The position numbers were made by a program, and so were the translations under genes. Positions 4,801 to 59,800 of a DNA stretch of 64,000 nt are shown here, in pieces. Position 1 is the stretch's first letter. Each line of letters opens with the position of its first letter. The notes below the pieces were generated by a model, which saw nothing but the letters and a program-made list of their open reading frames with translations, was not told where the DNA came from and ran no database searches. The DNA lies in the NCBI GenBank assembly GCA_035540375.1, contig DATLGO010000048.1, forward strand, positions 27,772-91,771. The letters are read 5' to 3'. The stretch comes from Thermoplasmatota archaeon (lineage in GTDB: Archaea; Thermoplasmatota; SW-10-69-26; JACQPN01; JAJPHT01).

Positions 4801-5451
4801 GGCAAGCACTTTCAGCCCACCCCCTCCCTCGAAGCTATCGCGGCGGCGCGCCTCGTCGGGGTTGGAGATGCACCCCTTGGACCTCCTCCTCTGCGAAACC
4901 GGGTCCCGTTGCTCCGACTGTCACTGGTGGACCGCGCGCGGCTGCTCGCTCTTGGCGCGCCTCGACGCGGCCACCGAACAGCTCACCGCCGCCGCGCGCC
5001 CGACCCGCGCGGCGCCCATCCCTGTCATGCCGGCGGCCACGGCCGTCGCCTGACCCGCATCCCCGACACGAACCCGGAAGGCGCGCTCCGCCCCCGTCCG
5101 TACGATGGATGGGAGGGCATCCCTAAGGCTGTGCTTCCAACCGCGCCTTCCGGGGTTCGTCGTGTCGACGCGCGGCTCGTTCGTCACACCCCCTCGAGCA
5201 GAGGCGGCGAGCCGGATATGCGTCCGACGCCGTTCGAGACGATCTTCCATCTGGGGCTTTGCAAAGCACATGGGGACGTGGACGTCGATGGAAACGAAAG
5301 AGCCATCTCTGAAATCCCATGAAACAGCGTTTACGCTCCCGCGGGGAGAGGACGAACCAGAGATCGTATGGCCGATCATCAGTCCACAGGCGTCGTTTCC
5401 ATCACGTGTCGCCGAGGAGCGGTCGCTAGAACAACCAAGGATGCCAATCCA

Positions 5452-6864
5452 TCAACGACAGTAGGGATGATCTCGATAACTTGGGAAGTCAGGTTGGGAT
5501 CTTCGTTGATTCGTGGACCAAATATCCTTAGGAACATCCAAGAATACGAATGAGCCGTCCCGGAGGTCCAGGATGACGATTCTTGCGCGAAGCGACCGGT
5601 TGTCGAGGAAAAACAGGGCGTACTCGTAATGATCCATGTAGACCTTTGGCTGCCGGCCGAAGGTCGTAATATTGGTGATCTGGGCGTCCCGCAAGTTCAT
5701 CATGATGGCGACGCGCTCTCGCGCGGCATCCAATGGGAGAATGAGGGAGTTGTCGGTGTCGCGGGGAGGCGCGCGCACCATGGGAGTCTTCGAGATAACC
5801 TTGAGCGTTTCGCGTTCACCCACGAGCGGGAGTGGGTTGTTTAGGATATCCTTCTGAACCTTGAATTCAAGGGCGGCCGTGGAGGCGGTCGACTGCAGCA
5901 AGATCGTCATGGTATAGGTCTCTCTGTCGACGTTTCCAACGACGCGGGAGCATCCCGCGTAAGCAAAGCGAGCCGATTGAATCGCCGCAGAGGGGTGCGC
6001 CCGCAGGAATCGCTCGACATCGCCGTCATGTTCGCGAGCCCATTCCAGGGCCTCCGCGATCCCGATCGGGCCCGGTTCTCCTTCGGGCAATTCTCGACCT
6101 CGCATGCGCGCCAGTTCTACTGGCGGCACCGCCCGGTGTTCATGGGCCGTGGAAATGATTCCGCCCTGCCCCCGCGCGTATTGTTGAAGCGTAAATTTGT
6201 AGGGGCCGCTTCGGATCGCGGTCGGAAATGGAACGCCATCACACAGGGTTACCGCGCCCTCTCGAATCAACCACGGAGAGATGCCGCTCGACCAGGTGGA
6301 TCCACCGCCCGTGGCCGGCGCCGAAACTTCGATCAACCGACAGCCGTGAGAACTCCCTGCAGGGGCCGGGATAGAACGATACCGAGGATCGAGGGCATTC
6401 AGAGCGGGCCCTGCGTCGCCGCGGAGGCGCCCGAAGAGGGGACCTACGCCGAGGAAGCTCGGCGTTCCCCGCATGCCGTAGTTTATGACCGTCCGCCCCG
6501 CTTCACACGTTTCCATGCTCTCTTCGTCGTATCGGCAGCCATAATCAACGGCGATGAGATTGCCTTCGCCATCGAGATATTCCGTGTGGTGAGGCGGAAA
6601 TCCGTGACCCTCAATTTCACCGTCGAACCCCACGTCGAGGCGATGCGCTTCCGCCTCCCGCCCAAACCGATCGAGGAAAGGCGACCTCGGGCCTACGGCC
6701 AACTTCAAGCTACCTTCAACAGGCCCGGTCACATTGAAAACTGCCCAGGATCCTTCCTCGAGAGCAGGCAGCGTCCACGCATCGGTCGCGGTGAAACAAC
6801 CGATGAAGGAAGGCGCGAGGACAACGATGGCCCACGCCGACCGTTGCTTCAACAGGCCCCCCAC
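5452..6864 (-). CDS. secreted hypothetical protein (N-terminal signal peptide)
   Basis: 470-aa ORF with an N-terminal hydrophobic signal (MGGLLKQRSAWAIVVLAPSFIGCFTA). It lies in a GC-poor (~50%) island and overlaps the upstream gene by 16 nt. Confidence 0.5.
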   Translation of the reverse strand: MGGLLKQRSAWAIVVLAPSFIGCFTATDAWTLPALEEGSWAVFNVTGPVEGSLKLAVGPRSPFLDRFGREAEAHRLDVGFDGEIEGHGFPPHHTEYLDGEGNLIAVDYGCRYDEESMETCEAGRTVINYGMRGTPSFLGVGPLFGRLRGDAGPALNALDPRYRSIPAPAGSSHGCRLIEVSAPATGGGSTWSSGISPWLIREGAVTLCDGVPFPTAIRSGPYKFTLQQYARGQGGIISTAHEHRAVPPVELARMRGRELPEGEPGPIGIAEALEWAREHDGDVERFLRAHPSAAIQSARFAYAGCSRVVGNVDRETYTMTILLQSTASTAALEFKVQKDILNNPLPLVGERETLKVISKTPMVRAPPRDTDNSLILPLDAARERVAIMMNLRDAQITNITTFGRQPKVYMDHYEYALFFLDNRSLRARIVILDLRDGSFVFLDVPKDIWSTNQRRSQPDFPSYRDHPYCR

Positions 6865-7382
6865 TCGGCAGGTTGGGAAACGGACTCCAGATCACCCCAC
6901 GAGGAGGCCGTTGCCTCCGCCATGGCGCACACCCATTCGATGTCCGGGGCGCCAATATACCCAACGAGAAGGCCGGCGCCGCAGGGATCTGCGCTTGCCG
7001 GCATGTTCGAACATGTGTCGGTGCGCGTCACCTCGGAAACCACGCCTCCCGTCATCTTGAACGTGGCCGTCAACACGGCACTCTCAACCGGCCCGGTCAC
7101 GGAAGCTGCGGCCTCGATTCGCCGCGACCCCCAGATGTTGATCCAGGTCTCTACGCAGATGGATAGGCCGCAGGAGGGCGGATTCGAGAAGCACTCCGTC
7201 GTCGGAACGTTCTCGGCGTTGCACCCGTAGCACGAGGGTCCCGTCTCATCCGCCGCGCAGGGTCCGCATCCGACCATGGCTTCGTTCTCGTCCACGTAGC
7301 AACTGTCGACGCCGGTCTCCGCACCTGTGGAAGGGAGATTGACCGCAAGTAGAACGAAGGCGATGAGCATCGGGGCTTTCAT
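6849..7382 (-). CDS. small Cys-rich secreted protein
   Basis: Signal peptide MKAPMLIAFVLLAVNLPSTGA, then about 16 Cys in ~165 aa (CYVDENEAMVGCGPCAADETGPSCYGCNAENVPTTECFSNPPSCGLSIC). Confidence 0.45.
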   Translation of the reverse strand: MKAPMLIAFVLLAVNLPSTGAETGVDSCYVDENEAMVGCGPCAADETGPSCYGCNAENVPTTECFSNPPSCGLSICVETWINIWGSRRIEAAASVTGPVESAVLTATFKMTGGVVSEVTRTDTCSNMPASADPCGAGLLVGYIGAPDIEWVCAMAEATASSWGDLESVSQPAEWGAC

Positions 7383-7437
7383 CACATCCGACAAGACCCC
7401 CCCCGCATCAATGTTGCGCGGGCCCGATCATGTCAGG

Positions 7438-24129: not shown

Positions 24130-24356
24130 GTCCTCTCCCCCATCTTCACGAGGGACGGGAGGGTCCTAAGGCTTCCCGGGCCTGCAATGGGAATCTTCAA
24201 ATACGGGCGGGGGGTTCCAGCGGCCGATACCGCGCGGCTGCGAGGGCCTGCGGCCGGGAATTCTCCCGGGCGCTGCGTGTCCGAGCCTACCCCGCGCGGC
24301 TTCAGCCGGCGTGGCGCCTGAAGTCGGGAATCACGTCGAGATAGGAGGAATCCACC

Positions 24357-25628
24357 ATGGCCGAGAAGCCGCACATGAACATCGTGTTCATCGGGCACGT
24401 CGACGCCGGCAAGTCCACGACTGTCGGCCGCGTCCTGCTCGACACGGGCACCATCGAAGCGCACATCATCGAGAAGCTCCGCAAGGAAGCGGAGGAGAAG
24501 GGCAAGGGCGGGTTCGAATTCGCCTACGTCATGGACAACCTCAAGGAGGAGCGCGAGCGCGGCGTCACCATCGACATCGCGCACAAGAAGTTCGTGACGA
24601 ACAAGTACTACTTCACGATCATCGACGCCCCCGGCCACCGCGACTTCGTCAAGAACATGATCACGGGCGCGTCGCAGGCTGACGCGGCCGTGCTCGTCAT
24701 CTCCGCAGTCTCGGGCATCGAGGCCCAGACGAAGGAGCACATCTTCCTCGCGAGGACCCTCGGCGTCGAGCAGCTCATCGTGTACGTCAACAAGATGGAC
24801 GCGCTGCAGCCCGCCTTCGACCAGAAGAAGTTCGACGCGCTCAAGGAGCAGATCGAGACGCTCATCCGGACGGTCGGCTACAAGAAGGAGAACGTTCCGA
24901 TCATCCCCGGCTCCTCGTACAAGGGCATCAACATCACGAAGGCCCCGGCCGAGATGGGCTGGTTCAAGGGCCCGACGCTCCTCGACGCCATGAACGGCCT
25001 CAAGGAGCCCTCGAAGCCCACGAACCTCCCGCTCCGCCTCCCGGTGCAGGACGTCTACTCGATCACGGGTATCGGCACGGTGCCGGTCGGCCGCGTCGAG
25101 ACGGGCATCCTCAAGATCGGCGACACCATCATCTTCAACCCCTCGGGCGCGACGGGTGAGGTCAAGTCGATCGAGATGCACCACGAGCAGCACCAGCAGG
25201 CCGTCCCCGGCGACAACGTCGGCTTCAACGTCCGCGGCATCGACAAGAAGTCGATCCGCCGCGGCGACGTCGCCGGCAAGGCGGACAACCCCCCGAAGGT
25301 CGCGAAGGCCTTCGTCGCCCAGATCGCCGTCCTGCAGCACCCCTCGGTCATCGCCGCCGGCTACACGCCCGTGTTCCACATCCACACGGCCCAGCTCGCG
25401 TGCACGTTCGAGGAGCTCCAGAAGAAGATGGACCCGAAGACGGGCCAGGTCAAGGAGGAGAACCCCCAGTTCCTCAAGACCGGCGACATCGCGATCGTGA
25501 AGATCCGGCCCTCGCGCCCCCTCGCGATCGAGCGCTCCAAGGACATCCCCCACATGTCCCGCTTCGCGGTCCGCGACATGGGCACGACGGTCGCCGCCGG
25601 CCTGTGCCTGGACCTCGAAGAGCGCTGA
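24357..25628 (+). CDS. tuf: translation elongation factor aEF-1 alpha
   Basis: [27 protein letters not shown]...[20 protein letters not shown], archaeal-type. A GGAGG RBS lies 7 nt upstream. Confidence 0.97.
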
Positions 25629-25660
25629 GCGCAGCGAAGCGCGAAGCGAGGTCCAGGCGA

Positions 25661-25682
25661 GCACGAACCCGCAGGTTCGTGC
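25661..25682 (+). terminator. hairpin gcacgaac-ccgcag-gttcgtgc downstream of tuf, flanked by a 25-nt direct repeat of the tuf 3' end
   Basis: The inverted repeat was read from the sequence. The same core recurs at about 49605. Confidence 0.4.
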
Positions 25683-25816
25683 GGTGCCTCGACCTCGAAG
25701 AGCGCTGAACGCTCGATTCGCCGGCCTCGGCCGGGACCCGCGCCGCAGGGGATCTGCGGCAGTCCTTTCTTTTCACCCTCGATGGACGAGCCGCGGCCGC
25801 GTCGCGTCAGCGGAGC

Positions 25817-27109
25817 CTACAGGGTGTCCGCGAGCCAGGCGAAACACGCGGGCTCCGGCACGCCCCGGGCAATGGGTGGCGCAAGAAGCAGCGACGGGCA
25901 CCCCGTCGCCTCGCGCTCGAGCGTCACATCGTACACGCCTTCGGTCTCCCCGCGCCAGAGCGTGATCATGAAGTTCGCACCCGCTTCCCCGAGGAGGCGC
26001 CAGCGGACGGCGCAGGGATCGTCGCTCGAGTATCCGACCACGAGGGCGCCTTCGGATTCGACGTTCGCGGCGATCGGTCGGCAATCCCGCGTCCGGATCG
26101 TGAGGATCGCGTGCTCGCCCGCGTCCAGCGTCGCCACGTAGGCGTCCTCGTGGTCGACGTCGTCGATGCATCCCGTCGTCCCGCCGAAGCCGAGGGGGTG
26201 GACGCGGCCGTAGCGGGACGTGTCCCATGACGTGCCGCCATCGCCGATCCCGAGGCAGGCCCGGGGCGCGAGGGGATGGAGCGCGATCGCGAAGCGATAC
26301 GCCGTGCCGATCTCGTCGGTGGTCCGCGCCGTAACATGGTATGTGCCATGGACCCGGCCGAGGTCGATCTCGTGCGGGCCGCAACCGTAGACGAAGATTC
26401 CCGTGTAGGTCTCGAGGCCGGCGTGGAAGCGCACGCGGCAATCGTCGCTCTCGAACCGCACGACGAGGCGGTGATCCTTGGGAACATCGATCCGGTAATC
26501 GTCCTCGTCGTCGTAGCGGTCGAGGCAACCCGTGAACGCACCGGCCGCGAGCCACGGACCGGTATAGGAGGCCGCGTCCTGACCCGTACCCCCGTCGTCC
26601 TGGGGGGTCGGGCAGAATCGGGGCTCCGGCGAGTCCTTGGCAAGGGTCAACCGGTAGGCGCCGTTCCCTTCGATGCGCCACAGGTGGACCGTGTGCGTGC
26701 CGGTGCCCTTCGCGACGTAGGCCACCCGCAGGGCCCCGCATCCGTCGCCGCCATTCTGGTCTTCGGCCGCATATGCGTTCGATATCCACACGAGGAATCG
26801 GCCGCACCCGGTCCGGTCGACGGTGAGGTCGTAGCGGTGGCCCGCCACCGCCCCGAACGTGTAGAAATCGGACGCAGATCCCGCGAACGGTGGTGATTCC
26901 TCGTTGCCGATGCAGCCCTCGTAGGTGCCTTCCGCGATGGCCACAGGGCTCGACTCGGTCGCGTCGCGACCGCTCCCGGCGTCGTCGGAGGCGCTCTCGA
27001 ACGGCGCGCACCAGGGCGAGGCCGCGACGGGACCGGCGGTTCCCGCGGGGGCCGCAAAAAGGAACGCGACGGAGACCAGGAAGGCGAGGCTTCGGAAGAC
27101 GGCCGTCAC
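25817..27109 (-). CDS. secreted protein with 3-4 tandem PPC-like (pre-peptidase C-terminal-type) beta-sandwich repeats
   Basis: Signal peptide MTAVFRSLAFLVSVAFLFAAPAGTAG. Repeated modules containing D-x-Y-x-F/I...G-x-x-Y/H-x-L/V-V...C (for example DFYTFGAVAGHRYDLTVDRTGC and DDYRIDVPKDHRLVVRFESDDC). Confidence 0.55.
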   Translation of the reverse strand: MTAVFRSLAFLVSVAFLFAAPAGTAGPVAASPWCAPFESASDDAGSGRDATESSPVAIAEGTYEGCIGNEESPPFAGSASDFYTFGAVAGHRYDLTVDRTGCGRFLVWISNAYAAEDQNGGDGCGALRVAYVAKGTGTHTVHLWRIEGNGAYRLTLAKDSPEPRFCPTPQDDGGTGQDAASYTGPWLAAGAFTGCLDRYDDEDDYRIDVPKDHRLVVRFESDDCRVRFHAGLETYTGIFVYGCGPHEIDLGRVHGTYHVTARTTDEIGTAYRFAIALHPLAPRACLGIGDGGTSWDTSRYGRVHPLGFGGTTGCIDDVDHEDAYVATLDAGEHAILTIRTRDCRPIAANVESEGALVVGYSSDDPCAVRWRLLGEAGANFMITLWRGETEGVYDVTLEREATGCPSLLLAPPIARGVPEPACFAWLADTL

Positions 27110-27497
27110 GGGACCTCAGCCCGGGGCCGTCGACATGAACTTTGTCGTGTCCTCGCGCGCGTGACAGCCGTCGCGCCCGCCCTGCGGCCGCGCGCCCTTC
27201 GCGGGCGCGGCCACACCTGTTCGAGGAGCGTGGGGACCACGAACACGACCGTGTCGCGCGCGATCTTCCCGGCCTCGTTCGTCGTGAGGACGTCCGCGAC
27301 GCGCTCGTCGACGTCCTCCCCGTCGCCTCGATACGGCCCGCCTCGGTCTCGATGGGGCCCGTGGGCCGGCCCTTGAAACGGAAGAGCACAGGGGGTGGCC
27401 TCGGGAGCCGACGACGCGCTCCTCGGCCCACCGCACGTTCTCGCCTTCCCCGCACGCGCCTCGCGCGGGCGGCGAGGATGAGGGTCGTGGCCGGCCT

Positions 27498-29222
27498 TCA
27501 GAGGCTCCGGATCACGTCGCAGTCGAACACCGTGTCGACCACGATTCCGTCCGGACTGTTGTATTTCACGCCCACGATCTCGGTGCACGCGCGGACGCCG
27601 GATTCGAGGGTTCCGGTCGGGAACACGAGGTGGCGGGCCGACGTGTAGACCCCCACGGTGCCCTGCGACGGGCTCGCCGTGCTCGCGAGGTGGATCGTGA
27701 TGGGATCCGTCCCCGAATAGAGGATGCGACGGGGCTCGCCGACGCAGTTGTCCAGGGTGGGGTTCGCCTTGCACGCCGCGCCGAGAACCGCCGGCGGATC
27801 CACGAGGAGGACGCCGGGCGTGGGCCAGACGGTGAGCGGCGTGATCGTGAGGGTGAGGTTCGAGTTGTGGCCCCCTTGGGGCGTCGAGATGCCGATCGGG
27901 TTGAACTCGCCCGCGGAATCATCGTACTGATCGGGAAGCGGTCGGCTCCCGCCCTCGTAGGGGTCGGCGGCCGCGATGCCGATGAAGCCGTCGCCATTGT
28001 AGTCGCGCCAGATGCCCGTGCGCACCTCGAACGCGAGGATGCCGGGCGCGGACGCGCCGTCGGGGGTGCCGACGCGCTCCATGCTCGAAGCGCCGAGGCC
28101 GGTGCGGGGCAGGAGGTCGAGCCAGCCGCGGGCTTCGGCCGCGAACTCGGCGTGGCGGCCGGCGGCGCTGTTGCCGCTCCCGAGGTCCGTTTCGCGCTCG
28201 TAGCGGGGGAAGAGGGCTCCCATGGCGGGCCCGAGGGTCGCGCCGAGGGGCGTGTCGCCGAGCGGGACGGGTCCGGGCCGGCACCGATTGGGGCAAAGCC
28301 CGAGGCTCGGGCTGCTCACGGCGTTCGTGAACGGCGCCGCGACGGCCCCGTACAGGGCCGCGACGGGGCCGGGGGCCACCGCCGAGTACAGGTCCACGTC
28401 GACGAGCGTGGTGTCGCGCGGGATGAAGGGGAAGCGGGGATCCTCGCCGGGGAGGAGAATGATGTCGTTCGCGGTGACGACCGTGATCCGCTGGAGGAGC
28501 GACCCCTCCGTGAAGACCATCACGTCCTGGTTCGAGCCGGTGTCCCAGAAAGCGTTCTGTCCGATGAGCTTGTAGGTGAAGTCCGGCTGGGTCTCGCGCG
28601 GACGCGAGTAGGACGCCAGGTTGGGGTGGCTGCCGGGTTCCACGAAGCTCGCGAGGGCGGCGCCCACGACGCCGCTCGCGGTCGCGCTCTTGATGATGAC
28701 CCATTCGTTGCCGTCCCCGCCGGACCAGGGGGCCCCCACGGAGCGGGACGACGTCTGCGAGGATCGAATGACGTTGTCCTCGTTCGCGTCGTTCCACAAG
28801 CCGAACCAGGCGTGGAACTTCGCCGCGCCCGGCAGAATCGTGGGGGGAAGGCCCAGGCGGCGCGTGAGGCTGTCGCCGCGGTGCGCGTCCTTGTACGCCC
28901 CGTCCACCGACGTCGCCGTATTCGGGGGCCCGACGAGCGCGGGATCCGCGTAGCGCAGCGCCTCGAAGTAGCCGAAGCTCGCATGGTAGCTGTCCAGGAT
29001 GCGCACGCCGACCGGCGGGTGCGAAAGCTGGGTCGGGGTCAGAGGGCAGCTCTCGCTGCCACTCGTATGCACCGCCTTCACGCAGTTCGACTGTCCGAGG
29101 TCGGCTTCGAACGATGGAGGCTCGGCGAGCTCGACGGACACGTCCGTCGCAGCTTCGAGGCGGTAGGGGTCCTGCGCGAGGACCGACGGGACGACCAGGG
29201 ACAGGACGAGAAGCAGCGCCAT
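27498..29222 (-). CDS. secreted hypothetical protein (574 aa)
   Basis: Internal Met start with signal peptide MALLLVLSLVVPSVLAQ. The upstream part of the track ORF overlaps the divergent hydrolase gene and is rejected. Confidence 0.5.
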   Translation of the reverse strand: MALLLVLSLVVPSVLAQDPYRLEAATDVSVELAEPPSFEADLGQSNCVKAVHTSGSESCPLTPTQLSHPPVGVRILDSYHASFGYFEALRYADPALVGPPNTATSVDGAYKDAHRGDSLTRRLGLPPTILPGAAKFHAWFGLWNDANEDNVIRSSQTSSRSVGAPWSGGDGNEWVIIKSATASGVVGAALASFVEPGSHPNLASYSRPRETQPDFTYKLIGQNAFWDTGSNQDVMVFTEGSLLQRITVVTANDIILLPGEDPRFPFIPRDTTLVDVDLYSAVAPGPVAALYGAVAAPFTNAVSSPSLGLCPNRCRPGPVPLGDTPLGATLGPAMGALFPRYERETDLGSGNSAAGRHAEFAAEARGWLDLLPRTGLGASSMERVGTPDGASAPGILAFEVRTGIWRDYNGDGFIGIAAADPYEGGSRPLPDQYDDSAGEFNPIGISTPQGGHNSNLTLTITPLTVWPTPGVLLVDPPAVLGAACKANPTLDNCVGEPRRILYSGTDPITIHLASTASPSQGTVGVYTSARHLVFPTGTLESGVRACTEIVGVKYNSPDGIVVDTVFDCDVIRSL

Positions 29223-29346
29223 CGATGCGATACGCACAGGCAGGCCTCGGTCCCGAGGTCGGCCAACGGGAGATATAGATACCGGCCCCACGTCGGGGCG
29301 AGGTCGCCCACAATCTACTTCTACGCCCGAGCGGGATCGGCGCGGG

Positions 29347-31404
29347 ATGACCCGCGCCATCGTCCTCGCCCTTCTCCTCGCGCTTCCCGCCGCCCTCGCC
29401 GGGTGCTTCGCGCCCGCCGATGAGGACCTGCGCCCCGGAAGCGTCGACCTGCTCGAGGGACTCGTCGTCGAGGGCGCGAAGGCGACACGTCTCGAAAACG
29501 GCGACCTGAACCTCGTGTGGGAGGGCGTGATCGAGGGCAAGAGCGTCCCCGTCGTGTTCCCGGTCCCGGAGGGCGTCACGTACGTCGAGGCGACCGCGAC
29601 GGTTCCTGCCGGACGCTCGCTCGACCTGCGCGTCGTCGGCAACTCGACGGGGCGGCTCCTTTGCAACACCCACAAGACGGCGAGCTTCCTCGTCGACGCG
29701 AAGGGCCGCGTCTCGTGCTCGGGCCTCGGCGTCGCGTCGCCGGGCGAGGACTGGAAGGCGATGCTCGGCGCGTCGAATTCGCTCTCGGCGCCCGCACCGT
29801 TCGTGCTCTCGGTGAACCTCAGCACCGCGCCCCTCGACGGGTCCGCCGCGCTCATCCGCTGGGACCGGCTCTCGCGCCCGATCCACAAGGCGCTCGAGAC
29901 GGAGACGGTGAAGGTGCCCGCAAGCGTCGACGGGGCGAAGCTCCACGTCGAGGTCACGCGCCCCGCTATCGAGGAGAAGGTTCCGACCATCCTCGTGTCG
30001 AGCCCGTACAACTACAATGCGCGCGCGGCGGGCAACCGCCCGTCGGATTCGCTCATCCTCGCGATGGTGCCGCGCGGGTATGCCGTCGTCGTCGCGGACG
30101 TGCGCGGCTTCGGCAACTCGGAAGGGTGCGTCGAGGTATGGGGTCCGAAGGAGCAGAAGGACCAGTACGACCTCGTGGAGTGGGTCGCCGCGCAGCCGTG
30201 GAGCGACGGCAAGGTCGCGTTCTACGGGCAGAGCTACGTGGCGACGACCCCCGTCGAGGCGGCCGTCCAGCGCCCGCCCCACCTCACGACGATCGCGATC
30301 GTCGCGCCCGTCATGAACACGTGGGCCGACTGGCACTTCGGCGGCGTCCCGAACGGCGAAAACGTCGGGTCTCCGCGCAGCTACCAGCAGGGCGGCACGG
30401 AGACGACGCCCGAGGACGGGAACCCGCTCGCGACGGTCGCGCACACGGCGAACGGCTTCTGCGACGTCACGCTCGCGGCGCGCGCGAACGACCCGCGCGC
30501 GCTTTACGACGCGTTCTACAAGGAGCGCAACTTCACGGCGCGCGCGAAGGAGATCAACGTCCCCGTGTTCTACACGCAGGGCTTCTGGGACGAGAACGTG
30601 AAGGGCGAGATGATCGTCGGCTTCTTCGACGCGCTCGACGTCCCGAAGCGCGCCTTCTACGGCCCCTGGCACCACCAGCACGCGGTGCGCGCGGACATGG
30701 AGCTCACGCTGCGCGCCTGGTTCGACCACTGGCTCAAGGGCATCGAGACGGGCGTCATGGACGGACCCCTCGTCGAGGTCCGCACGCCGCAGGGCCTCGC
30801 GCGCGAGGCCGAATCGTGGCCGCCGGCCCACGCGACGCCGCGCGCGTTCCACCTCGCGTCCGGGAAGCTCCAGGACGCGTCCGGGGCGGGCGAATCCACG
30901 TATCTCGCCTTCCCCGCGAAGACGGTCCTCGCGAACCTCCTCCCGATGGCGCCGACGCCGACCGCGGTCCGCTTCGCGTCGGAGCCGCTCGCCGAGCCTC
31001 TCTACGTGTCGGGCAAGGGCGTGTTCCGCTTCAACGCGAAGCTCGCGGGCGCGGACAACTCCTACTTCGCGGCGTACCTCCGCGACGTCGCGCCCGACGG
31101 AACCTCGACGCTCCTCACGTTCGGGTGGCTGAACGCGGCCCATCGCTTCGGGCACGAGCGGTACGAGCCGGTGCCGCCGAACGCCCCCGTCGCGTACGCG
31201 CTTTCGCTCCTTCCCGCGGACCACGTCGTCCTCGCGGGCCACAAGCTCGTCCTCGAAGTCCGCTCGGCGGACCTCGCGGACTGGTCGCAGGCCGGCGGCG
31301 CGACGGAACCCGGTCTCGTGACGCTCGACCACGCGCGAAGCGCGCTCGAGCTGCCGACGCTCCCGCTCGAATCGCTCGCGCCCGCGCCGCGGTCGGCCGC
31401 GTGA
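29347..31404 (+). CDS. CocE/NonD-family alpha/beta hydrolase (X-Pro dipeptidyl-peptidase S15-like), lipoprotein-type signal
   Basis: MTRAIVLALLLALPAALAGC (lipobox-like). ...VADVRGFGNSEGCVEVWGPKEQKDQYDLVEWVAAQPWSDGKVAFYGQSYVATT matches the S15 family nucleophile region, with a C-terminal beta-sandwich. Confidence 0.8.
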   Translation: MTRAIVLALLLALPAALAGCFAPADEDLRPGSVDLLEGLVVEGAKATRLENGDLNLVWEGVIEGKSVPVVFPVPEGVTYVEATATVPAGRSLDLRVVGNSTGRLLCNTHKTASFLVDAKGRVSCSGLGVASPGEDWKAMLGASNSLSAPAPFVLSVNLSTAPLDGSAALIRWDRLSRPIHKALETETVKVPASVDGAKLHVEVTRPAIEEKVPTILVSSPYNYNARAAGNRPSDSLILAMVPRGYAVVVADVRGFGNSEGCVEVWGPKEQKDQYDLVEWVAAQPWSDGKVAFYGQSYVATTPVEAAVQRPPHLTTIAIVAPVMNTWADWHFGGVPNGENVGSPRSYQQGGTETTPEDGNPLATVAHTANGFCDVTLAARANDPRALYDAFYKERNFTARAKEINVPVFYTQGFWDENVKGEMIVGFFDALDVPKRAFYGPWHHQHAVRADMELTLRAWFDHWLKGIETGVMDGPLVEVRTPQGLAREAESWPPAHATPRAFHLASGKLQDASGAGESTYLAFPAKTVLANLLPMAPTPTAVRFASEPLAEPLYVSGKGVFRFNAKLAGADNSYFAAYLRDVAPDGTSTLLTFGWLNAAHRFGHERYEPVPPNAPVAYALSLLPADHVVLAGHKLVLEVRSADLADWSQAGGATEPGLVTLDHARSALELPTLPLESLAPAPRSAA

Positions 31405-31722
31405 TCACGCAAGCGGCGTCGGCGCGAATCCGGCCGCAAGGCGCGCGAGGAGGTCGCGCGCCGCGTCCCACTCCTCGCGTCCCTCGGACGTGGCCTCGAA
31501 GCCGCGCGCCGTTTCGATGGCGCGCGCGTCCCGCAGGAGCCGGTCGAGGCTGTCCTCGGCGACGTCGCGGTCGAGCGCGGGGTCGAACGCGGAAAGGCGC
31601 GCAAGGAGGTCCTCCCGGCGTCGCGGGGCCGCCGCGACCTCTGAAAGGATGAGCGACTCAGCGACCGTCCGTCGGGCGCGGTCCAGGTACTTTTCTCCCA
31701 AGGTGCCCAAGGTCCCTTTCAC
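31405..31722 (-). CDS. hypothetical protein
   Basis: 105-aa ORF with an ATG start and genome-typical codon use. No family recognised. Confidence 0.3.
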   Translation of the reverse strand: MKGTLGTLGEKYLDRARRTVAESLILSEVAAAPRRREDLLARLSAFDPALDRDVAEDSLDRLLRDARAIETARGFEATSEGREEWDAARDLLARLAAGFAPTPLA

Positions 31723-31866
31723 CCGACGTCGCAGGCGGGCGGGCGAGCAAGAACGTGGCGCCTTGGAGAAGGGCTGTACAACAATCCTTGACCGGATTCC
31801 CGCGCGAGCCCGGGCGGGCTCCTATCGAGGCGAATCTTCATCATCGAGGCCGCGCGTGGGCGCGGC

Positions 31867-32394
31867 ATGCGGTTCTCGTTCGAGGCGGCGGGGTTCGACC
31901 TCGCGCCGGGCGCCCTTTTCGGCGGCGAGATCCTCGCGGAGCCCGGCCCCGGCGGCCTGCGCGCGGAGCCCGCGGGAACCCCGGACCGCCTCCACCTCGT
32001 GGACGGCCGCATCCGCGCGACGGGCCGCGTGCTCTACGCGGCCCGGGAGACGTGGACGCGGAGCGACCTCGGCGCCGAGCCGCGGCGCCGCGTCGTCGCC
32101 TCGCTCTTCGCGGGAGGGCTCACGGTCCTCGTCATCGCGGATGCCGGCGACGAGCCCCGCGAGGGCGTCCCCGCGACGGTCGAGGGCCCGTTCCGCATGG
32201 TCCTCGCCCCGGGGGACGAGCGCGCTCCGCCCCGGCCGCGCGCGGACAGCCTCGTCACGTGCCCGCTGACCTTGCGCACGGCGCACGTCGCGCCGGGAAG
32301 GACGCCGGTCGTCGAGGCCGACGTCGTCCGCGTGTGGCCGGTGGAGGTCCTCATGCCGGGGGAAGGCGGGCGCGCCGAGCGCCTGCGCCTGTGA
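31867..32394 (+). CDS. hypothetical protein
   Basis: 175-aa ORF with very high GC3 in this frame. No family recognised. Confidence 0.35.
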   Translation: MRFSFEAAGFDLAPGALFGGEILAEPGPGGLRAEPAGTPDRLHLVDGRIRATGRVLYAARETWTRSDLGAEPRRRVVASLFAGGLTVLVIADAGDEPREGVPATVEGPFRMVLAPGDERAPPRPRADSLVTCPLTLRTAHVAPGRTPVVEADVVRVWPVEVLMPGEGGRAERLRL

Positions 32395-32512
32395 AGCAAA
32401 GGTATAAGACGGACCACGGATTCCAGCGGTTGCTCCCGAGGTTGTTCCGGGCCCGAAGAGCCGGGATCCGGAAGGAATTCGGGGCCTTCAGCAACCCCTC
32501 GAGGTCGAAACC

Positions 32513-32824
32513 ATGGCTCACACGGCCCGCATCTCCCTTGCCGGCACCGACCCCAAGAAGGTCGACAGCGTCTGCATCCAGATCAAGACCATCGCCGAGC
32601 GCACGGGCGTCCGCATGTCCGGCCCCGTCCCGCTCCCGACGAAGCGCCTCGTCGTCCCCGCCCGCAAGTCGCCCGACGGCGAGGGCTCGGAGACGTACGA
32701 CCACTGGCAGCTGCGCGTCCACAAGCGCCTCATCGACATCGACGCCGACGAGCGCGCCCTCCGCCAGCTCATGCGCATCCAGGTCCCGGACTCGGTCAAC
32801 ATCGAGATCGTCCTCCGCACGTGA
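32513..32824 (+). CDS. rpsJ: 30S ribosomal protein S10 (uS10)
   Basis: [76 protein letters not shown], archaeal uS10. Confidence 0.95.
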
Positions 32825-52667: not shown

Positions 52668-53890
52668 CTGCTGCCTTTGCCGTAGTTCCGGATCCTTGTC
52701 AGGAGATCCTTGAGGGTATCGTCATCGCTTGCGCCGTTTTCGCCGCGCACGACGCGACGCAACCGGTCGTCGGTCGCGAGGACCGCGAGCGTTTCGGGGG
52801 CGGGCGACTCCTCGCGCACGCCGTGGACGGCCCGCACGCGCTCGCGCGCGAGGCGCGTAATGCGCTCGATCGGGCTCGCCATGGGGGAGGTCCGGACGCG
52901 GGCGAGGCCGCTCCGGTGGTGCGTGAGCCGCTCCTCGGGTTTGACGAGGGCGAGGAGCACCGCGATCGCGAGGCCGAGGGAACCGAGGAAGATCCACTGC
53001 CAGAACGGGTCCTTCGTCGGCACGACGAGCGACGCGAGGCCCGCCGCGGCGAGCCGGGCCTGGGGCGCGGGCGCGTGACGCGATTCGTCGAAGAGGATGG
53101 TTCCGGCGTTCGACCCGCGGGCGAGCGCGTCGGGGAGGGCGAGGGCAAACTTGCGGTTGTCGCTCCCTGCGGCGTCGAGCATCTCGTTCGTGAAGAGGGC
53201 GGGGTCCGCGATGAACATGACGGTGCCGCGGCCGTGCGCGACGACGACCATCTGGGGGAAGGGACCCTTCGTGTCCGTGTCGTCCTTGCGGCGGTTCCCG
53301 TCGTTGTCGAGGTACGAGTCCGGCGAGCTCGTCGCGACGATCCGGGCCGAGGGGTTCGCGCCGGAAAGAAGGCTCGGGCTCACGGTGAGGGCCGTGGGCT
53401 CGTTGAGAAGGAGGTCGAAGGTCAGGTCCTCGCCCTTGCTCGTCGTGAGGAGCGCGCGGGCGCGGGCGAGCGAGACGTTCTTCTGGAAGTTGGAGTCGAG
53501 GAGCGGCACCTTGTCGAAGGTGACGCCGAACTTGACGGCGAGCGTGTTCGCGAAGCCGAAGTCGTCCGCGACCACGAGGACGCCGCCGCGCGTCACGAAG
53601 TCGTCGAACGCCTCGATCTCGGAGGCCGAGTACGGCCGGCTCACGCCGACCGCGAACACGATGTGGGCCGCGGGATCGGAGACGCCGCGCAGCACGAGCG
53701 GCGTCGAGGCGATGGTGTCCGTGTTGTACCCGAGGCCCCCCGCGAGGCTCGCGCGGTACGCGCCGAGATCCGCGCGGCCCGAGCTGTAGGATCCGAGCTC
53801 CGGGGGCGGGGAATAGAGGATCGCGACGACGGCGCCCCCGACAATGAGGGCGGCAAGGAGGACGGCCGCGAGGCCGAGCGCGCGCTTCAC
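52664..53890 (-). CDS. DUF4350-like protein (N-terminal and C-terminal TM helices flanking a large extracytoplasmic domain)
   Basis: The GTG start (VKRALGLAAVLLAALIVGG) overlaps the stop of the giant upstream gene (GTGA). C-terminal TM FWQWIFLGSLGLAIAVLLALV. The stop overlaps the MoxR start (GTGA). The 5' 2.4 kb of the track ORF 52664..56311 overlaps the giant gene out of frame and is rejected. Confidence 0.6.
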   Translation of the reverse strand: MKRALGLAAVLLAALIVGGAVVAILYSPPPELGSYSSGRADLGAYRASLAGGLGYNTDTIASTPLVLRGVSDPAAHIVFAVGVSRPYSASEIEAFDDFVTRGGVLVVADDFGFANTLAVKFGVTFDKVPLLDSNFQKNVSLARARALLTTSKGEDLTFDLLLNEPTALTVSPSLLSGANPSARIVATSSPDSYLDNDGNRRKDDTDTKGPFPQMVVVAHGRGTVMFIADPALFTNEMLDAAGSDNRKFALALPDALARGSNAGTILFDESRHAPAPQARLAAAGLASLVVPTKDPFWQWIFLGSLGLAIAVLLALVKPEERLTHHRSGLARVRTSPMASPIERITRLARERVRAVHGVREESPAPETLAVLATDDRLRRVVRGENGASDDDTLKDLLTRIRNYGKGSR

Positions 53891-56800
53891 GCGCCCGCCT
53901 CCTTCGCGCCGCCCTTCGTGCGCCGGATGCGCGCGAGGTCGGCGTTGAGCGCGGCGAGCGCGCTCAGGGCGCGGTCGCGCTCGGCGGGCCCGACGCCGTG
54001 GGCGGAGTACCGCGCCTCCTCGAAGAGCGAGACGAGCGCGTCGAGCGGCGCCGCGCGCACCGGGAGAGCCGCCTTGACGGCGGCGCCGAACTCCTGCGCC
54101 GTGACGTCCGGCGTCGTCGTGTACCCGAATTTCACGAGGTAGTCGCGCAGGCGCCGGTAGGCCATGAGAATGGTGGCCGAGTACTCGTCGCCCGCGACGA
54201 GCGCGGCCTGCGTGTCGAGGAGGATGCGCTCGGCCTCGGTGACGCGGCTCTTCCTGTACCAGGCGACGAGGAGGCTCACGATGGCCGCGACCGCGAGAGC
54301 GCCGATGAGCGCGAGGACCCACGAGTTGCCGGCGCCGCCGAAGGCGCCCGTGGAGATCTGGATGCGGGTCGCCTCGTTCGTGGGCAGCAGGTCGTCGGTC
54401 CCGCCGAAGCGCACGTCGAGGTCCGAGGCGCCCGCTCCGGTGACCTTCCCCGGGAAGGAGGCGTGGCCGGTCGCGTTCGTCTTCAGCGTGAACGGGTAGT
54501 ACGAGCCGCTGAAGTGGACGCGGAGCACGGCGTTCGGGACGCCGAGCCCCTCGTCGTCGAGGAGCTGGACGGTGCCCGTGAAGCTGTCGCCCACCGCGAG
54601 CTTGCGGGGGACCACGACCTCGAGCCGGGTCATGCTGATGACCTCGACGAGCGCGATCGCCGAGGCGGGCGTGTGGCTCTGGTCGCCCGCGTAACGGACC
54701 TCGATCGGGACCCGGGCGCGCTCGAAGTCGGCCGGGATGAGGGCCGCGACGTGGAAGCTCCCGTTCGGGGCCGTGCTCGCGCGCGCGAGGAAGGAGCCGT
54801 TGAAGATGAGCTCCACGGAGGCGCCGGGGACGCCGAGGCCGTTCTCCTGCTTGAGGCGGCCGTCGAACTCGAAGACCTGGCCGCGCACGGCGCGCGGGGG
54901 CGGGTGGATCTCGAGCACGGTGCGCGAGAGCAGGCGCAGCGACCCGGTCGCCCCCGAGGGCGCGTAGAGCGTGGAGCCCTCGTAGCGCGCCTCGATCGGG
55001 TAGACCTTCGCGGCGACCCCGGAGGTGTCGAAGCCGGCCTCGGCCTCGCCGCGGAAGTCGGTCGGAGTGACCGTCACGGGCGATCCGAGGAAGGTGACGC
55101 CGACGATCTCGCCGCCGATGGGCCGGCCGGCGTCGTCGTGGAGCGTGAAGTTGTACACGACCTCGCCGATCGCGGCGGTGAGGTGGGGCATGCGAATCGA
55201 GGTCGCGCTCAGGACGCGCACCGTCGAGACGAGCTCCGGCGCCCCGCGCAGGAGGCCGTCCGCGCTCCCGTCGTAGCGGGCGCGCGCGAGGACGGGGCCG
55301 AGGCTCGCGTTCGCGGGGAGCGTGAGGGGCGCGCGGAATCCTCCGGTCGCGTTCGTCACGAAGACGCCGAGATGGCGCTCGCCGAGCGTCACGTTCACGC
55401 TTTCGCCGCGGACGGGCCGCTCGTAGGCGTCGACGACGACCCCGACGAGCGCCTGCGGAACGCCGCGCACGAGGGCCTTCGTCTCGAGGCTCACGCGCGT
55501 CGCGGACGTCGCCGGAACGCGGATCGAGGTCGAGGCGGGCCCGTAGAAGTCGGATCCCGCGAATCCGAGCGCGAACGTCACGCTCCCGACCTTGGGATAG
55601 ACGTTCCTCGGGATGGTGAGCGAGAAGGTTCCCGTCGCGTTGTCCACGCGCGCCTGGGTCGCGTAACCCTCCGTCGAGATGCGGATGACGAGCGCGTCGC
55701 GCGAGGTGGGGTCGCGCGCGGGGCCGCCGCCCACGTCCCGGAGGGTCCCCTGGATGACCGCGTCCTTCGCGATGTCGAGCGCCGTGACGCGGATGAGGTC
55801 GGCCCCGAGGGGCTGGAGGATCTGCGCCTCGAGGACGGGCCGGGCCCGGATGGTGACGAAGCTGAGCTTCTGCGAGGAGGCCTGGTAGAGGTCGGATCCC
55901 TCGAAGACGAGGGAAACGGGCTGGTTGCCAGGACTCGAGTCCTCGGGGATGAGGATCTTGAAGGACGCGACACCCTGCGCGTTTGTAACCGCCGTGTGGA
56001 GCGCTCCGAGGAAATGGAGACCGACGGTCTCGTTGCCGACGACCGCCCCCCGGAAGTTCCTGAGGGTCGCCTCGGCGACGAGATCGCCTCCCGCAACCGC
56101 GATGAGACGATCGTTCAGCACGCGGCCGGAGATCTTCGTGGGGAACGCGATCGCGACGCGGGCCTTCCCCGTCGAGGCGCCGTAGAGCTCCGATGGCGTG
56201 GTCTCGAGCGGGAGGTCGAAGTAGCCCGGCTCCTGGGCGGCGCCGGTCGGGAAGCTGATGTTGAACCGCCCCTCCGCGTCCGTGGTCGCGCTCTTGCGGA
56301 CGCCGTTCCACGTCATGAGCACCGGCCTCCGCGGCGCGGGGTCACCCGACCCGTCGAGGAGGCGCGCGGTGCCCCCGATCTCGCCGTTCGGCGTCGTGCG
56401 GAGCGTGGGTCCGGCGTCGAACGTGGTCGGCGTGCGCAGGCGGAGCGTCTGTGTTGCCACCACGGGCGTCTCGAACGTGCCGCGGATGCCCCGGGCCCGG
56501 TAGACGGTGGAGCCCGCGCCGTCGACGACGTCGGCGGCGGTCCACTCCGCGTGGGCGCCGATGCCGTAGCTCCAGAGAAGGACGCGGTAGCTCGTGATCG
56601 CTGGATCGAGCGCGACGGAGGCCGTGTCGAGGGTCCAGCTCACCGTGGATCCCGGAGCGTGGACCTTGCCGAAGAGCACCACCGGGCCGCAGCTCGAGGG
56701 AATGGTGACGGATTGCGCGCGCACGAGCGAAAGCGTGAGCGAGAAGCGGCCGGCGGCGTCCGTGAACGCCACGCCCGCGACGCGGGACGGGTCGCTGCGG

Positions 56801-59800
56801 GCCCTCAGGTTGTCCTTCGAGGCGTCGTTCCAGGCGAGGTTCGCGAGGATGGGGACGCAGGCGCGGTTGACCCAGTTGCGCGTCGAGGCCGCCGGGGCGA
56901 GCGTCCCGTCGACCGCAAGCGAGCCCCCCTTGAGCAGGATGTCGTCCTGACCGGAGTGGTGCGTCACGACGAGGTCCTGGATCACGACGTCCGCAAGCGC
57001 TTCCCAGATCGGGCACGTGTCGCCGGGAAGTCGGGTCGAGGCCACGCTGAGGCGGCCTTCGCGCATCACCCAGGCGTTCCGGAAGGCGGGGTCCGCGGGG
57101 TCCGCCTCGCCCGTGTTCATCTGGTCGTAGAACGGGTGCGGATCCTCGCCGACGAAGTCGTTCAGCCCGTCCTTGTCGTAGTCGAAGTTGTTGCCGAGGA
57201 TCTTGCCCGTGATCGGGTCGATGAAGCCGTCCTTGAAGGGCGGTCCCGCCTTGCACGAGCGCGTCGCGATGTTCGTGTCCGTGCGGTTGCCCGCGGCGCC
57301 GAACCACCAGGTGCCGGTCCACGACGGCGGGCGGCCGATGTCGTACCGCTGGCCTTCGGACAGGTCGCCGAAGCGCGAGACCGTGCGGGTGTCCTGGAGC
57401 GGGTCGTACCCGTAGAGCTGCTCCCACCCGTCGGGGATCCCGTCGTCGTCCGAATCCTCGTCCGTGGGGGAGGTTCCGACGGCGCACGTTCCCCCGTCGG
57501 GGCATCGCTCGCCGTAGAAGATGTATCCGCCCGGAATGCGCGTGTGCACGATGCCCGCGGCGATGAGCGCTTCGACGTGCTCCGCAAGGTCCGGCTTCGA
57601 GAGCGTCGCTTCGCACGTCGCGGGGAGGGCGCCGCCCGCAAGCTGCGCCTGCCAGTTCGGGCCGTCGAGGAGGCCGTCGCCGTCGGTGTCGAAGGCGACG
57701 ACGCTCGTCGGGGGATTGAGCGCGAGCTCGTCGGCGGCGCTGAGGCCGTCGCAGTCCGCGTCGGAGGCGCCGAGGTCGTCGAGCGGGTTCAGCGGATTGG
57801 ATCCCGCGAGCTTCCCTTCCTCGGTGACCTCCTTGCCGTCGCCGAGGCCGCCGAAGTCGCTGTCGGGATTGAGGGGATCGGTCGGGCCCGGCATGCCGGG
57901 CTCGAAGGAGACCTTCCACTCGTTGACGTTCGAAAGCCCGTCGCCGTCGCAGTCCGATTTCCCGCCGAGGGGGTTGCGCGGCTCGAAGAGGCTCACGCAG
58001 GAGACGTAGGCGGGGCTCGCCGAGGCGAGCCGGCGCGTGCGCGCCTCCCACCAGTCCGGCATCCCGTCGCCGTCGGTGTCCGGCACGAGCGGGTCCGTGC
58101 GGTTCTCGTACATCTCGCGCCAGGTCCAGCGGAACGGGCCCTGGATGATGTAGACCGTGAATTCCTCGGCGCGGCCCTGGGCCTTCACGCGGTGGTACCC
58201 GTTCGTCGGGGCGAGGAGGGTCTCCGAGGGCGCAAGCGTCGCGGGCGTGCCCTCGGGGACGCCGAGGGTGCGCACGTACGTGGTCTCGAACCCGGTGGCG
58301 TTCACGTCGCCGGGCTTGAGCGGGTCCATGCAGCCGCACGGCGACGCGACGCCGGGGGCGTGCGAGCCGACGCGGGAGAAGTAGTATTCCCACCCGTCGG
58401 GAACGCCGTCGCCGTCCGAGTCCGCGCGGTGGGGATCGGTCTTGAGCGCGTACTCGTCGAGGTTCGTGAACGCGAACTGGAACGGGAACAGGGTGCCGAC
58501 GCGGTGGTCCACGCCGTCGCCGTCGAGGTCGCGCGTCGTGTCGGAGAGCCCGTCCTTGAGGCACGACCCGAGGCTGTCGACCCGCGTCGGATCGAGGTCC
58601 CACGCGAAGCACGCGTGGACGTACCAGGCGTGGCGGATCTCCCAGCCGTCGTCGAGCGAGTCCCCGTCCGTGTCGAAGAGGGCGGGATCGGAGGCGGGGA
58701 AGGGGTACGCGTCGAGCGCCCCCGGGGCCGCGAGGCGGCGCTCGGGCTTGAGCTCGGCCCCGTCGTTCACGCCGTCGCCGTCGGCATCCGCGTTCACGAC
58801 GTTCGGGGCGTCCTGCCAGCGGCCGCAGCCTTCGCCGAGGCGTCCCTGGGGCAGGAGCGCCTCGCGGGCCTGCTGGAGCGACCACGTCTCGCCCTTGCAG
58901 CGGCGGTGCTGGTCGATGATGCGGTTCAGCTCCTCGGGCGTCGCCTGCTGGGAGCGGGTCGTCCAGTACTCGACCTCGGCGCCGTCGAGGATCCCGTCGC
59001 GATCCGTGTCGGACTCGACGGGGCTGAGCGGCGGGGACACGGCGAAGGCGACCTCGTCGAGATCGTCGATGCCGTCGAGGTCCGTGTCGGGCGTGAGGGG
59101 ATCGAGCGCGCACGGGACGCCCGCCTTGGCGGCCGTGTCGTAGCAGAAGTCGACGCGGCGGCCCGCGATGACCGAGAAACCCTGACGCTTCTCGAAGTCG
59201 GTGAAACCCGAGTTGGCGCTGTCCGCGCGGGCGGGATTGCTCCACACGTGCGTCGTGCGACCGTCGACCGTGACCGACCAACCGAGGACGACCTCCTCGA
59301 AGTCGTTGAGGCCGTCGCCGTCCGTGTCGCGCCGCCGCGGATCGGCGCCCGAGAGCGCCTCCTCGAGGTTCGTGAGGCCGTCGCCGTCGGGGTCCGTGAG
59401 CGGCCCCACGACGAAGGCGGGAAGCGAGGCGCGCGAGAGCCACGCGGGGAGCGAGATGTGGGTGAGGAGCGCCGCGCGCACGCCGCCGCCGTCCGCCGCC
59501 GAGAGCGGGTCGAGCCCGTGCGCGACCTCCCACGCGTCCGACATGCCGTCGCCGTCGGAGTCCGCCCGCGTCGGGGAAAGCCCGCGCGCGAAGAGGGGCG
59601 CGAGCTCGTCGCCCGAGAGGTTCGCGTAATTGAAGCGGGCCGCGGTCCAGCGGAACTTCTCGAGCACCGTCATGCCGGTCCCGTCGAGGCTCCGGTAGGC
59701 GAGGCCCGGGTCGAGGGCGTCGAGCTTCCAGTGGAGGAGCCAGCCGTCCGCGATGCCCGCGCCGCTCGTCGAGTATCGCGTCGCGTTCGTGCGCGTCTCC

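Follow-up and report, generated by a model that had tools for sequence, protein, structure and literature searches.

In the 64,000-nt stretch of Thermoplasmatota DNA analyzed here (hereafter the window), the genes encoding elongation factor aEF-1alpha (tuf) and ribosomal protein uS10 (rpsJ) are separated by 6,884 bp containing five additional genes. The tuf-rpsJ pair forms the distal portion of what is known in cultured archaea as the 'streptomycin operon' arrangement, and its disruption in the window is a derived state and a rare exception, as the two genes are less than 300 nt apart in 150 of the 157 archaeal loci that were informative. The intervening DNA does not deviate from its surroundings in composition, contains no mobility genes and encodes two protein families with relatives in the same organism or phylum. 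We therefore favor, as the probable explanation, an old, lineage-specific break of the pair through stepwise filling with native genes over a recent import of foreign DNA. Apart from one small feature that lacks an explanation, a short duplication of the tuf 3' end, the split is an ordinary, lineage-specific rearrangement.

Disruption of the tuf-rpsJ pair

Both tuf (423 aa, 24357-25628; Pfam GTP_EFTU at 4e-61 in addition to the D2, D3 and eEF1A_C domains; GC content at third codon positions (GC3) 0.97) and rpsJ (103 aa, 32513-32824; Ribosomal_S10 PF00338, 6e-29) are located on the plus strand, and the intervening sequence (25629-32512) extends exactly from the tuf stop codon to the rpsJ start codon. 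It contains five open reading frames (ORFs), p430 (minus), p579 (minus), a peptidase S15-family hydrolase (plus), p105 (minus) and p175 (plus), which exhibit gene-like GC3 values of 0.85-0.95 and are identical to the set in the public gene calls. Three of the five products carry signal sequences, in agreement with the original prediction, made from the DNA sequence alone, that about 6.9 kb with secreted-protein genes separates tuf and rpsJ. The source metagenome-assembled genome (MAG) has a GC content of ~70%, and its products are listed at NCBI under 'Candidatus Thermoplasmatota archaeon' with VM889_ locus tags. The window DNA was also recovered in ENA assemblies, in one Logan assembly and in the JGI samples 3300028006 and 3300028007. 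Contigs assembled independently from several samples overlap and tile the same tuf-rpsJ arrangement, which is therefore not a chimera or assembly artifact.

The frequency of tuf-rpsJ adjacency was measured in 160 loci encoding EF-1alpha relatives, as a literature search on the archaeal streptomycin operon was of no direct use. The loci were retrieved from JGI metagenomes and from a set with a single genome for each GTDB species. The tuf-to-rpsJ distance was determined in each of the 157 loci with enough downstream sequence to be informative. In the 150 loci with rpsJ less than 300 nt from tuf the distance is typically 10-100 nt, which bears out the earlier statement that rpsJ directly follows tuf in most archaea. 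If a tuf-rpsJ dicistron is defined by an rpsJ within ~300 nt on the same strand, the window does not encode one. The linkage is broken in seven surveyed loci representing six distinct cases (L140/L073, L014, L151, L107, L178 and L099). The Nanoarchaeia loci L140 (11298-13438) and L073 feature a 2.25-kb spacer with three same-strand ORFs, two of which encode proteins with membrane-spanning segments, while no rpsJ was identified within 10 kb of tuf in L014 and L151. The spacer in the window is the largest in-situ spacer of the survey with rpsJ still located downstream. A broken linkage as a general trait of high-GC Thermoplasmatota was considered and rejected, since many loci with a GC content of 0.69-0.73 retain adjacent genes.

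The retention of both genes on the same strand, 6,884 bp apart, fits an in-situ insertion. Alternatively, tuf or rpsJ could have been transposed, or relocated by nested inversions, in a lineage with scrambled gene order. The neighborhood of the pair is compatible with such a history: the genes upstream of tuf (icd and an AsnC-like gene) and downstream of rpsJ (encoding a Zn-ribbon protein, a DJ-1/PfpI protein, a thioesterase and an amidohydrolase) are not found beside tuf-rpsJ in any of the ~160 loci, the surroundings of tuf in L099 are unlike those in the window on either side, and no rpsJ is present within 10 kb of tuf in L014 and L151. However, flank conservation is weak in all sampled relatives anyway (60-71% EF-1alpha identity), and none of 16 flanking or interval proteins was found near tuf-rpsJ in these relatives, which are too distant. 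Furthermore, tuf and rpsJ in the window have kept their strand, their ancestral order and a spacing of 6.9 kb, for which insertion requires fewer events. We thus regard a relocation of either gene as unlikely, and insertion into the spacer would be the simpler history.

Composition and mobility signatures

According to the original prediction, the interval represents acquired accessory DNA, possibly a secreted peptidase/adhesin cassette, which would be expected to differ from its host in composition. No such deviation was detected in the interval by GC content, codon usage or tetranucleotide frequencies. Its GC content (0.69-0.73) resembles that of the flanks, and the synonymous-codon likelihood z-scores of its five genes range from -1.25 to +0.62 relative to the 43 other genes of the window. 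In tetranucleotide composition, the interval lies at an L1 distance of 0.130 from the remainder of the window, which ranks 45 among 58 equal-sized sliding windows, and its tetranucleotide correlation (TETRA r 0.761, compared with a mean of 0.778) is mid-range. The codon-usage and tetranucleotide check proposed together with the acquisition hypothesis was hence negative.

The same tests picked out a different part of the window (~3-12 kb) as deviant, centered on a stretch at ~5000-7400 with a GC content of 0.60-0.63 compared with ~0.70 elsewhere. The sliding windows that include it rank near the top in tetranucleotide deviation (L1 distance as high as 0.21 and TETRA r as low as 0.67), which demonstrates that the composition test has power in this window. 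The stretch encodes a 470-aa lipobox protein (5452-6864, minus strand) and a 181-aa cysteine-rich secreted ORF (6849-7394, minus strand), and on the basis of its composition appears to be a stronger candidate than the tuf-rpsJ interval for acquired DNA. TETRA r is similarly low at the right end of the window. Two adjacent, very large ORFs of 2,192 and 1,161 aa (53887-63947, minus strand) show native codon usage.

Searches against Pfam, NCBIfam and PHROGs identified no integrase, transposase, conjugation or phage domains in the five interval products, and tRNA and Rfam scans detected neither a tRNA nor any Rfam family in the interval. Likewise, no attachment-site (att)-like repeats flank it; the sole repeat pair has copies 80 nt apart at the left edge, with no copy near 32.4-32.5 kb.

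Genes between tuf and rpsJ

The first gene downstream of tuf encodes p430, a 430-aa predicted secreted protein with three PPC-fold repeats (25817-27109, minus strand). Its N-terminus, MTAVFRSLAFLVSVAFLFAAPAGTAG, reads in translation as a signal peptide with the small-residue site AGTAG. Three internal repeats with conserved cysteine pairs were confirmed, while neither the whole protein nor the single repeats matched the bacterial pre-peptidase C-terminal (PPC) domain model (Pfam PF04151) directly, even at E<=10. A word-index search recovered no close homologue, and an exhaustive all-against-all HMMER/phmmer search identified 39 remote ones. PF04151 is present in 7 of 10 scanned remote homologues, and in P0132, P0148 and P0155, for which both sets of coordinates are listed, the stretch aligned with p430 overlaps the best-scoring PPC domain. 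The structural model of repeat 1 (predicted local distance difference test score (pLDDT) 70.6) yielded PDB entries 5SV5, 3JQW and 1NQD as best Foldseek matches (E 4e-5 to 1e-4). Taken together, the predicted fold and the transitive homology appear to justify the designation of p430 as a PPC-repeat protein despite the missing Pfam match. The original annotation thus stands with regard to the repeats, the fold and the PF04151-bearing homologues, but not with regard to a direct match in the hidden Markov model check it had called for.

Upstream of p430, a non-coding gap of 388 nt (27110-27497) presumably contains the p430 promoter region. No frame reaches a gene-like GC3 (<=0.78), and no blastx similarity was found. 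The gap is unusually long for such a compact genome; its interpretation as a pseudogene was rejected because none of its frames bears a coding signature and none of the fetched sequences resembles it.

The adjacent gene (27498-29237, minus strand) encodes p579, a predicted secreted protein without known domains, which, as judged from database matches and motifs, belongs to a multi-copy, lineage-specific family. The protein comprises 579 aa from a GTG start codon or 574 aa from an internal ATG, and its translated N-terminus, MRIASMALLLVLSLVVPSVLA followed by QD, resembles a secretion-type signal with a cleavage site between VLA and QD. Only eight database matches were obtained, five of which carry locus tags of the same MAG and represent the query and four paralogues. 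The paralogues are encoded on other contigs of the MAG, share 31-42% identity and are partly organized in tandem arrays. Members of the family share many invariant motifs and are either secreted or equipped with a lipobox. An AlphaFold model calculated with eight family members was discarded as unusable (pLDDT 47.5).

Further copies of the p579 family were observed on contigs from the same samples. On another contig of the same MAG (L096, 5742-11481), two tandem paralogues of 565 and 573 aa are located directly downstream of rplA-rplJ-P1, a second instance of this family beside translation genes. An additional contig (L094, 4797-12049) harbors a tandem array of three family members (564, 564 and 552 aa) and a further 546-aa ORF running to the contig end, which was not matched to the family. 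In total, contigs from these samples encode at least nine copies, and hardly any others occur among 5.8 billion clusters. A preferential settlement of secreted-protein genes beside highly expressed translation operons in this lineage is conceivable but improbable.

Divergently oriented to p579, the window encodes a 685-aa serine hydrolase of the CocE/NonD or peptidase S15 family (29347-31404, plus strand), which carries Peptidase_S15 (PF02129; 5.6e-56, 190.6 bits, cutoff 23) and PepX_C (PF08530; 5.9e-25, 88.9 bits, cutoff 22.5) and scores 247 bits against TIGR00976 (CocE_NonD, cutoff 66.3). In its translated N-terminus, MTRAIVLALLLALPAALAGC, a typical signal sequence is followed by the lipobox LAGC at residues 17-20, and the enzyme was therefore correctly recognized at the outset as a divergently transcribed, lipoprotein-type CocE/NonD hydrolase. 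As in p430 and p579, a basic residue and a hydrophobic core precede the predicted processing site, which in the hydrolase fits the lipobox pattern [LVI][ASTVI][GAS]C. The motifs GQSYVA, GFWDE and GPWHH align with GVSYLG, GWYDG and GPWSH of CocE (1JU3), in which the aligned Ser, Asp and His residues form the catalytic triad. Models of PepX (Xaa-Pro dipeptidyl-peptidase) at the equivalog or subfamily level were matched at 31-170 bits, with cutoffs of 642-988. The hydrolase also contains an uncharacterized N-terminal region of ~170 aa. Among its homologues, which share 37-58% identity, those with a name derive almost exclusively from MAGs of Thermoplasmatota or Euryarchaeota. The genes of the three closest ones examined (58, 50 and 46% identity) have unrelated neighborhoods that include neither tuf nor rpsJ. 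Judging by these affinities, the hydrolase family appears to be native to the Thermoplasmatota.

The divergent intergenic region between p579 and the hydrolase (29238-29346) features a central putative TATA-like element, GATATAGATA (29272-29281). Two small hypothetical proteins complete the interval. The 105-aa p105 (31405-31722, minus strand, GC3 0.85) is convergent on the hydrolase gene and abuts its stop codon; it lacks a signal peptide and yielded only a sub-threshold winged helix-turn-helix-like match (E 0.18). The 175-aa p175 (31867-32394, plus strand, GC3 0.95) also lacks a signal peptide and matched no family in Pfam, NCBIfam or PHROGs. A gene for a helix-turn-helix protein follows that of the closest hydrolase orthologue, but neither p105 nor p175 shows similarity to it that would identify them as its remnant.

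The genomic contexts of homologues provide no indication of a conserved cassette. At three loci with p579 paralogues (P0002, P0004 and P0005), no homologue of the hydrolase or of p430 is encoded alongside, and at three loci with hydrolase homologues no homologue of p579 or p430 was present. Because homologues of p430, p579 and the hydrolase were never neighbors at the loci examined, the interval is not a conserved secreted peptidase/adhesin cassette, and this part of the original prediction is not supported. The secreted proteins would more probably fulfill independent extracellular or cell-surface functions, such as binding and peptide or ester hydrolysis, and be located here by chance rather than as a co-inherited module.

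The insertion of a horizontally acquired island as one unit between tuf and rpsJ has several features in its favor, namely the derived nature of the split, the predicted export of three of the five gene products, the lack of a close p430 homologue and the tuf 3'-end duplication at the left edge. Nevertheless, we consider such an acquisition quite unlikely. The composition test that singled out the ~5.0-7.4 kb stretch did not single out the interval, there is no integrase, transposase or tRNA, and the only repeat copies lie 80 nt apart and not at both ends. Furthermore, the hydrolase has Thermoplasmatota-type homologues in other contexts, p579 has several paralogues in the same genome, and the interval genes do not co-occur elsewhere. 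The view of the interval as acquired accessory DNA is hence not supported by its composition, mobility gene content, flanking repeats or family affinities. What can be retained of the earlier interpretation is that DNA was added between two normally adjacent genes, though not as an acquired cassette.

Duplication of the tuf 3' end

A direct repeat is located at the end of tuf. Copy 1 (25604-25632, plus strand) comprises the last 25 nt of the gene including the stop codon and the following 4 nt, and is identical at 27 of 29 positions to copy 2 (25684-25712, plus strand). The copies are separated by a unique spacer of 51 nt (25633-25683, plus strand), and two such copies did not occur in any of 100 shuffled sequences. 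Within the spacer, one arm is complementary to the end of tuf (13-bp stem), and GCACGAACC-CGCA-GGTTCGTGC makes up a perfect hairpin of 9 bp. The RNA fold of the tuf terminus and spacer has a z-score of -3.39, and none of 200 shuffles was as stable. The copies differ at two sites, and at each of them copy 2 carries the base found in the aligned tuf 3' end of L099, and a terminator-like hairpin follows copy 2. Copy 2 may thus be the original tuf terminus.

No third copy of the repeat or of the spacer was detected in the 64-kb window or in the other fetched contigs of the organism, and no comparable duplication of the tuf 3' end occurs in any of the 160 related loci. Since neither the window nor any of the fetched loci contains more than one copy of the spacer, a repeated element of the miniature inverted-repeat transposable element (MITE) or repetitive extragenic palindromic (REP) type was rejected. 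The duplication, which had been proposed to bound the interval on the left, is real but brackets only 51 nt, with its copies 80 nt apart, and does not bracket the 6.9-kb interval. It may represent a template-switch duplication or an integration scar, and does not mark the interval as an island.

If the repeats were an attL/attR-like scar, a site-specific element would have integrated into the tuf 3' end, restored the reading frame, and later been lost or reduced to 51 nt, opening the spacer to further insertions. Consistent with this scenario, the repeat covers the last codons and the stop codon of tuf, copy 2 keeps the L099 state at both variable sites with the hairpin behind it as if it were a displaced original terminus, the spacer is strongly structured, and the duplication is absent from the related loci. 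Still, we judge it very unlikely: only 51 nt lie between the copies, there is no integrase nearby and no other copy of spacer or repeat in the window or the fetched contigs, and the argument for an ancestral state relies on two sites. In addition, the repeat itself recurs in inverted orientation within the spacer, a feature that a template-switch or fold-back duplication explains at least as well. A broader version, in which the duplication and the folded spacer are the scar of an archaeal integrative element using the EF-1alpha 3' end and repeated integration and decay seeded the accretion of genes, appears highly improbable. If the duplication was indeed an integration scar, it would hint at a new attachment site for archaeal mobile elements.

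Transcription units and the nearest relative

A terminator scan identified a hairpin with a T-rich tail (25742-25773, plus strand), which resembles a terminator at the end of the tuf transcript. At the other end of the interval, the region upstream of rpsJ (32395-32512, plus strand) presumably provides its own promoter and leader. Just after the p175 stop codon, ~110 nt upstream of rpsJ, it contains a TATA-like element, AAAGGTATAAGA (32398-32409), followed by the 9-mer TTCCAGCGG (32421-32429) and a GAGGT Shine-Dalgarno-like element before the ATG. Because three of the five intervening genes are on the opposite strand and a terminator-like site follows tuf, co-transcription of tuf and rpsJ appears implausible.

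The 9-mer upstream of rpsJ occurs only twice in the 64 kb (24215-24223 and 32421-32429), each time ~15-17 nt downstream of a TATA-like box, that of tuf and that of rpsJ. An origin of the rpsJ promoter and leader as a duplicate of those of tuf was rejected, as the two upstream regions show no significant local alignment, its score being matched by 117 of 2,000 shuffles.

Same-site comparison was based on contigs of the same population, which are identical, and on L099 (Ga0214472_10103173), which encodes the nearest EF-1alpha outside this population (81% identity; 60-71% in the other sampled relatives) and extends 529 nt downstream of tuf. The L099 tuf ends with ...GLCLDLEER as in the window, and is followed by a hairpin with a T-run and a convergent gene encoding a GNAT protein; no rpsJ was found in the 529 nt available. 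Since a terminator-like tuf end is common to the window and L099, the uncoupling of tuf and rpsJ probably predates their divergence.

Origin of the split and its implications

In the scenario we favor, the short tuf-rpsJ spacer of an ancestor would have been filled over time, probably in several steps, with genes native to the Thermoplasmatota lineage, namely those for a divergent exoprotein with PPC repeats, a single member of a secreted family that has expanded locally, a lipoprotein-type CocE/NonD hydrolase and two small cytoplasmic proteins. This would have left two separate transcription units, with tuf ending in strong stem-loops and a hairpin with a T-run that faces the 3' end of the convergent p430, and rpsJ being read from its own TATA-like promoter ~110 nt upstream.

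Several points weigh against this scenario. Apart from the same population, no genome with an EF-1alpha closer than 81% is available, and the timing and number of insertions were not observed; with 529 nt of L099 sequence after tuf, its rpsJ could still be located a few kb downstream. Amelioration could hide an old horizontal origin of the interval. No close homologue is known for p430, p105 and p175, the latter two of which were not searched against protein databases. Furthermore, the assignment of promoters and terminators is based on sequence motifs only, and native accretion leaves the 29-nt duplication of the tuf 3' end unaccounted for.

Beyond annotation, the split is of little importance, being a further well-documented example among the ~4% of archaeal loci sampled in which tuf and rpsJ are uncoupled. 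It illustrates that a break of this pair need not signal foreign DNA, and draws attention to two uncharacterized families of secreted proteins in a poorly sampled, high-GC lineage of the Thermoplasmatota.

Comparison with known systems

Like genomic islands or integrative elements that have inserted at the 3' end of a conserved gene, the interval directly follows a highly conserved gene, and a short duplication of the 3' end of that gene is present. In contrast to such elements, it lacks an integrase, a flanking repeat pair, compositional deviation and a foreign phylogenetic signal.

Similar to PPC domains (PF04151) and clostridial collagen-binding domains, the p430 model is an eight-stranded beta-sandwich (template modeling (TM) score of ~0.7 on the target for 5SV5 and 3JQW). 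However, p430 is too divergent for the Pfam model, contains three tandem copies with conserved cysteine pairs and has no attached catalytic domain. The hydrolase shares Peptidase_S15, PepX_C and alignable Ser-Asp-His motifs with characterized CocE/NonD enzymes, including the Rhodococcus cocaine esterase (1JU3) and the alpha-amino acid ester hydrolases 1MPX and 2B4K, but differs from them by its extra N-terminal region of ~170 aa and its lipobox signal peptide.

Compared with the common archaeal tuf-rpsJ pair, both genes of the window are intact, strongly codon-biased (GC3 0.97) and unchanged in order and strand, whereas the spacer spans 6,884 bp and contains five genes, of which three are encoded on the opposite strand. 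In common with the other broken loci (L140/L073, L014, L151, L107, L099 and L178), which represent rare, independent losses of adjacency, the window has lost this linkage, but the gene contents of those loci are unrelated to its own. The closest parallel in kind is found in L140, where membrane-protein genes have been placed between tuf and rpsJ on the same strand in an independent spacer expansion of the same type.

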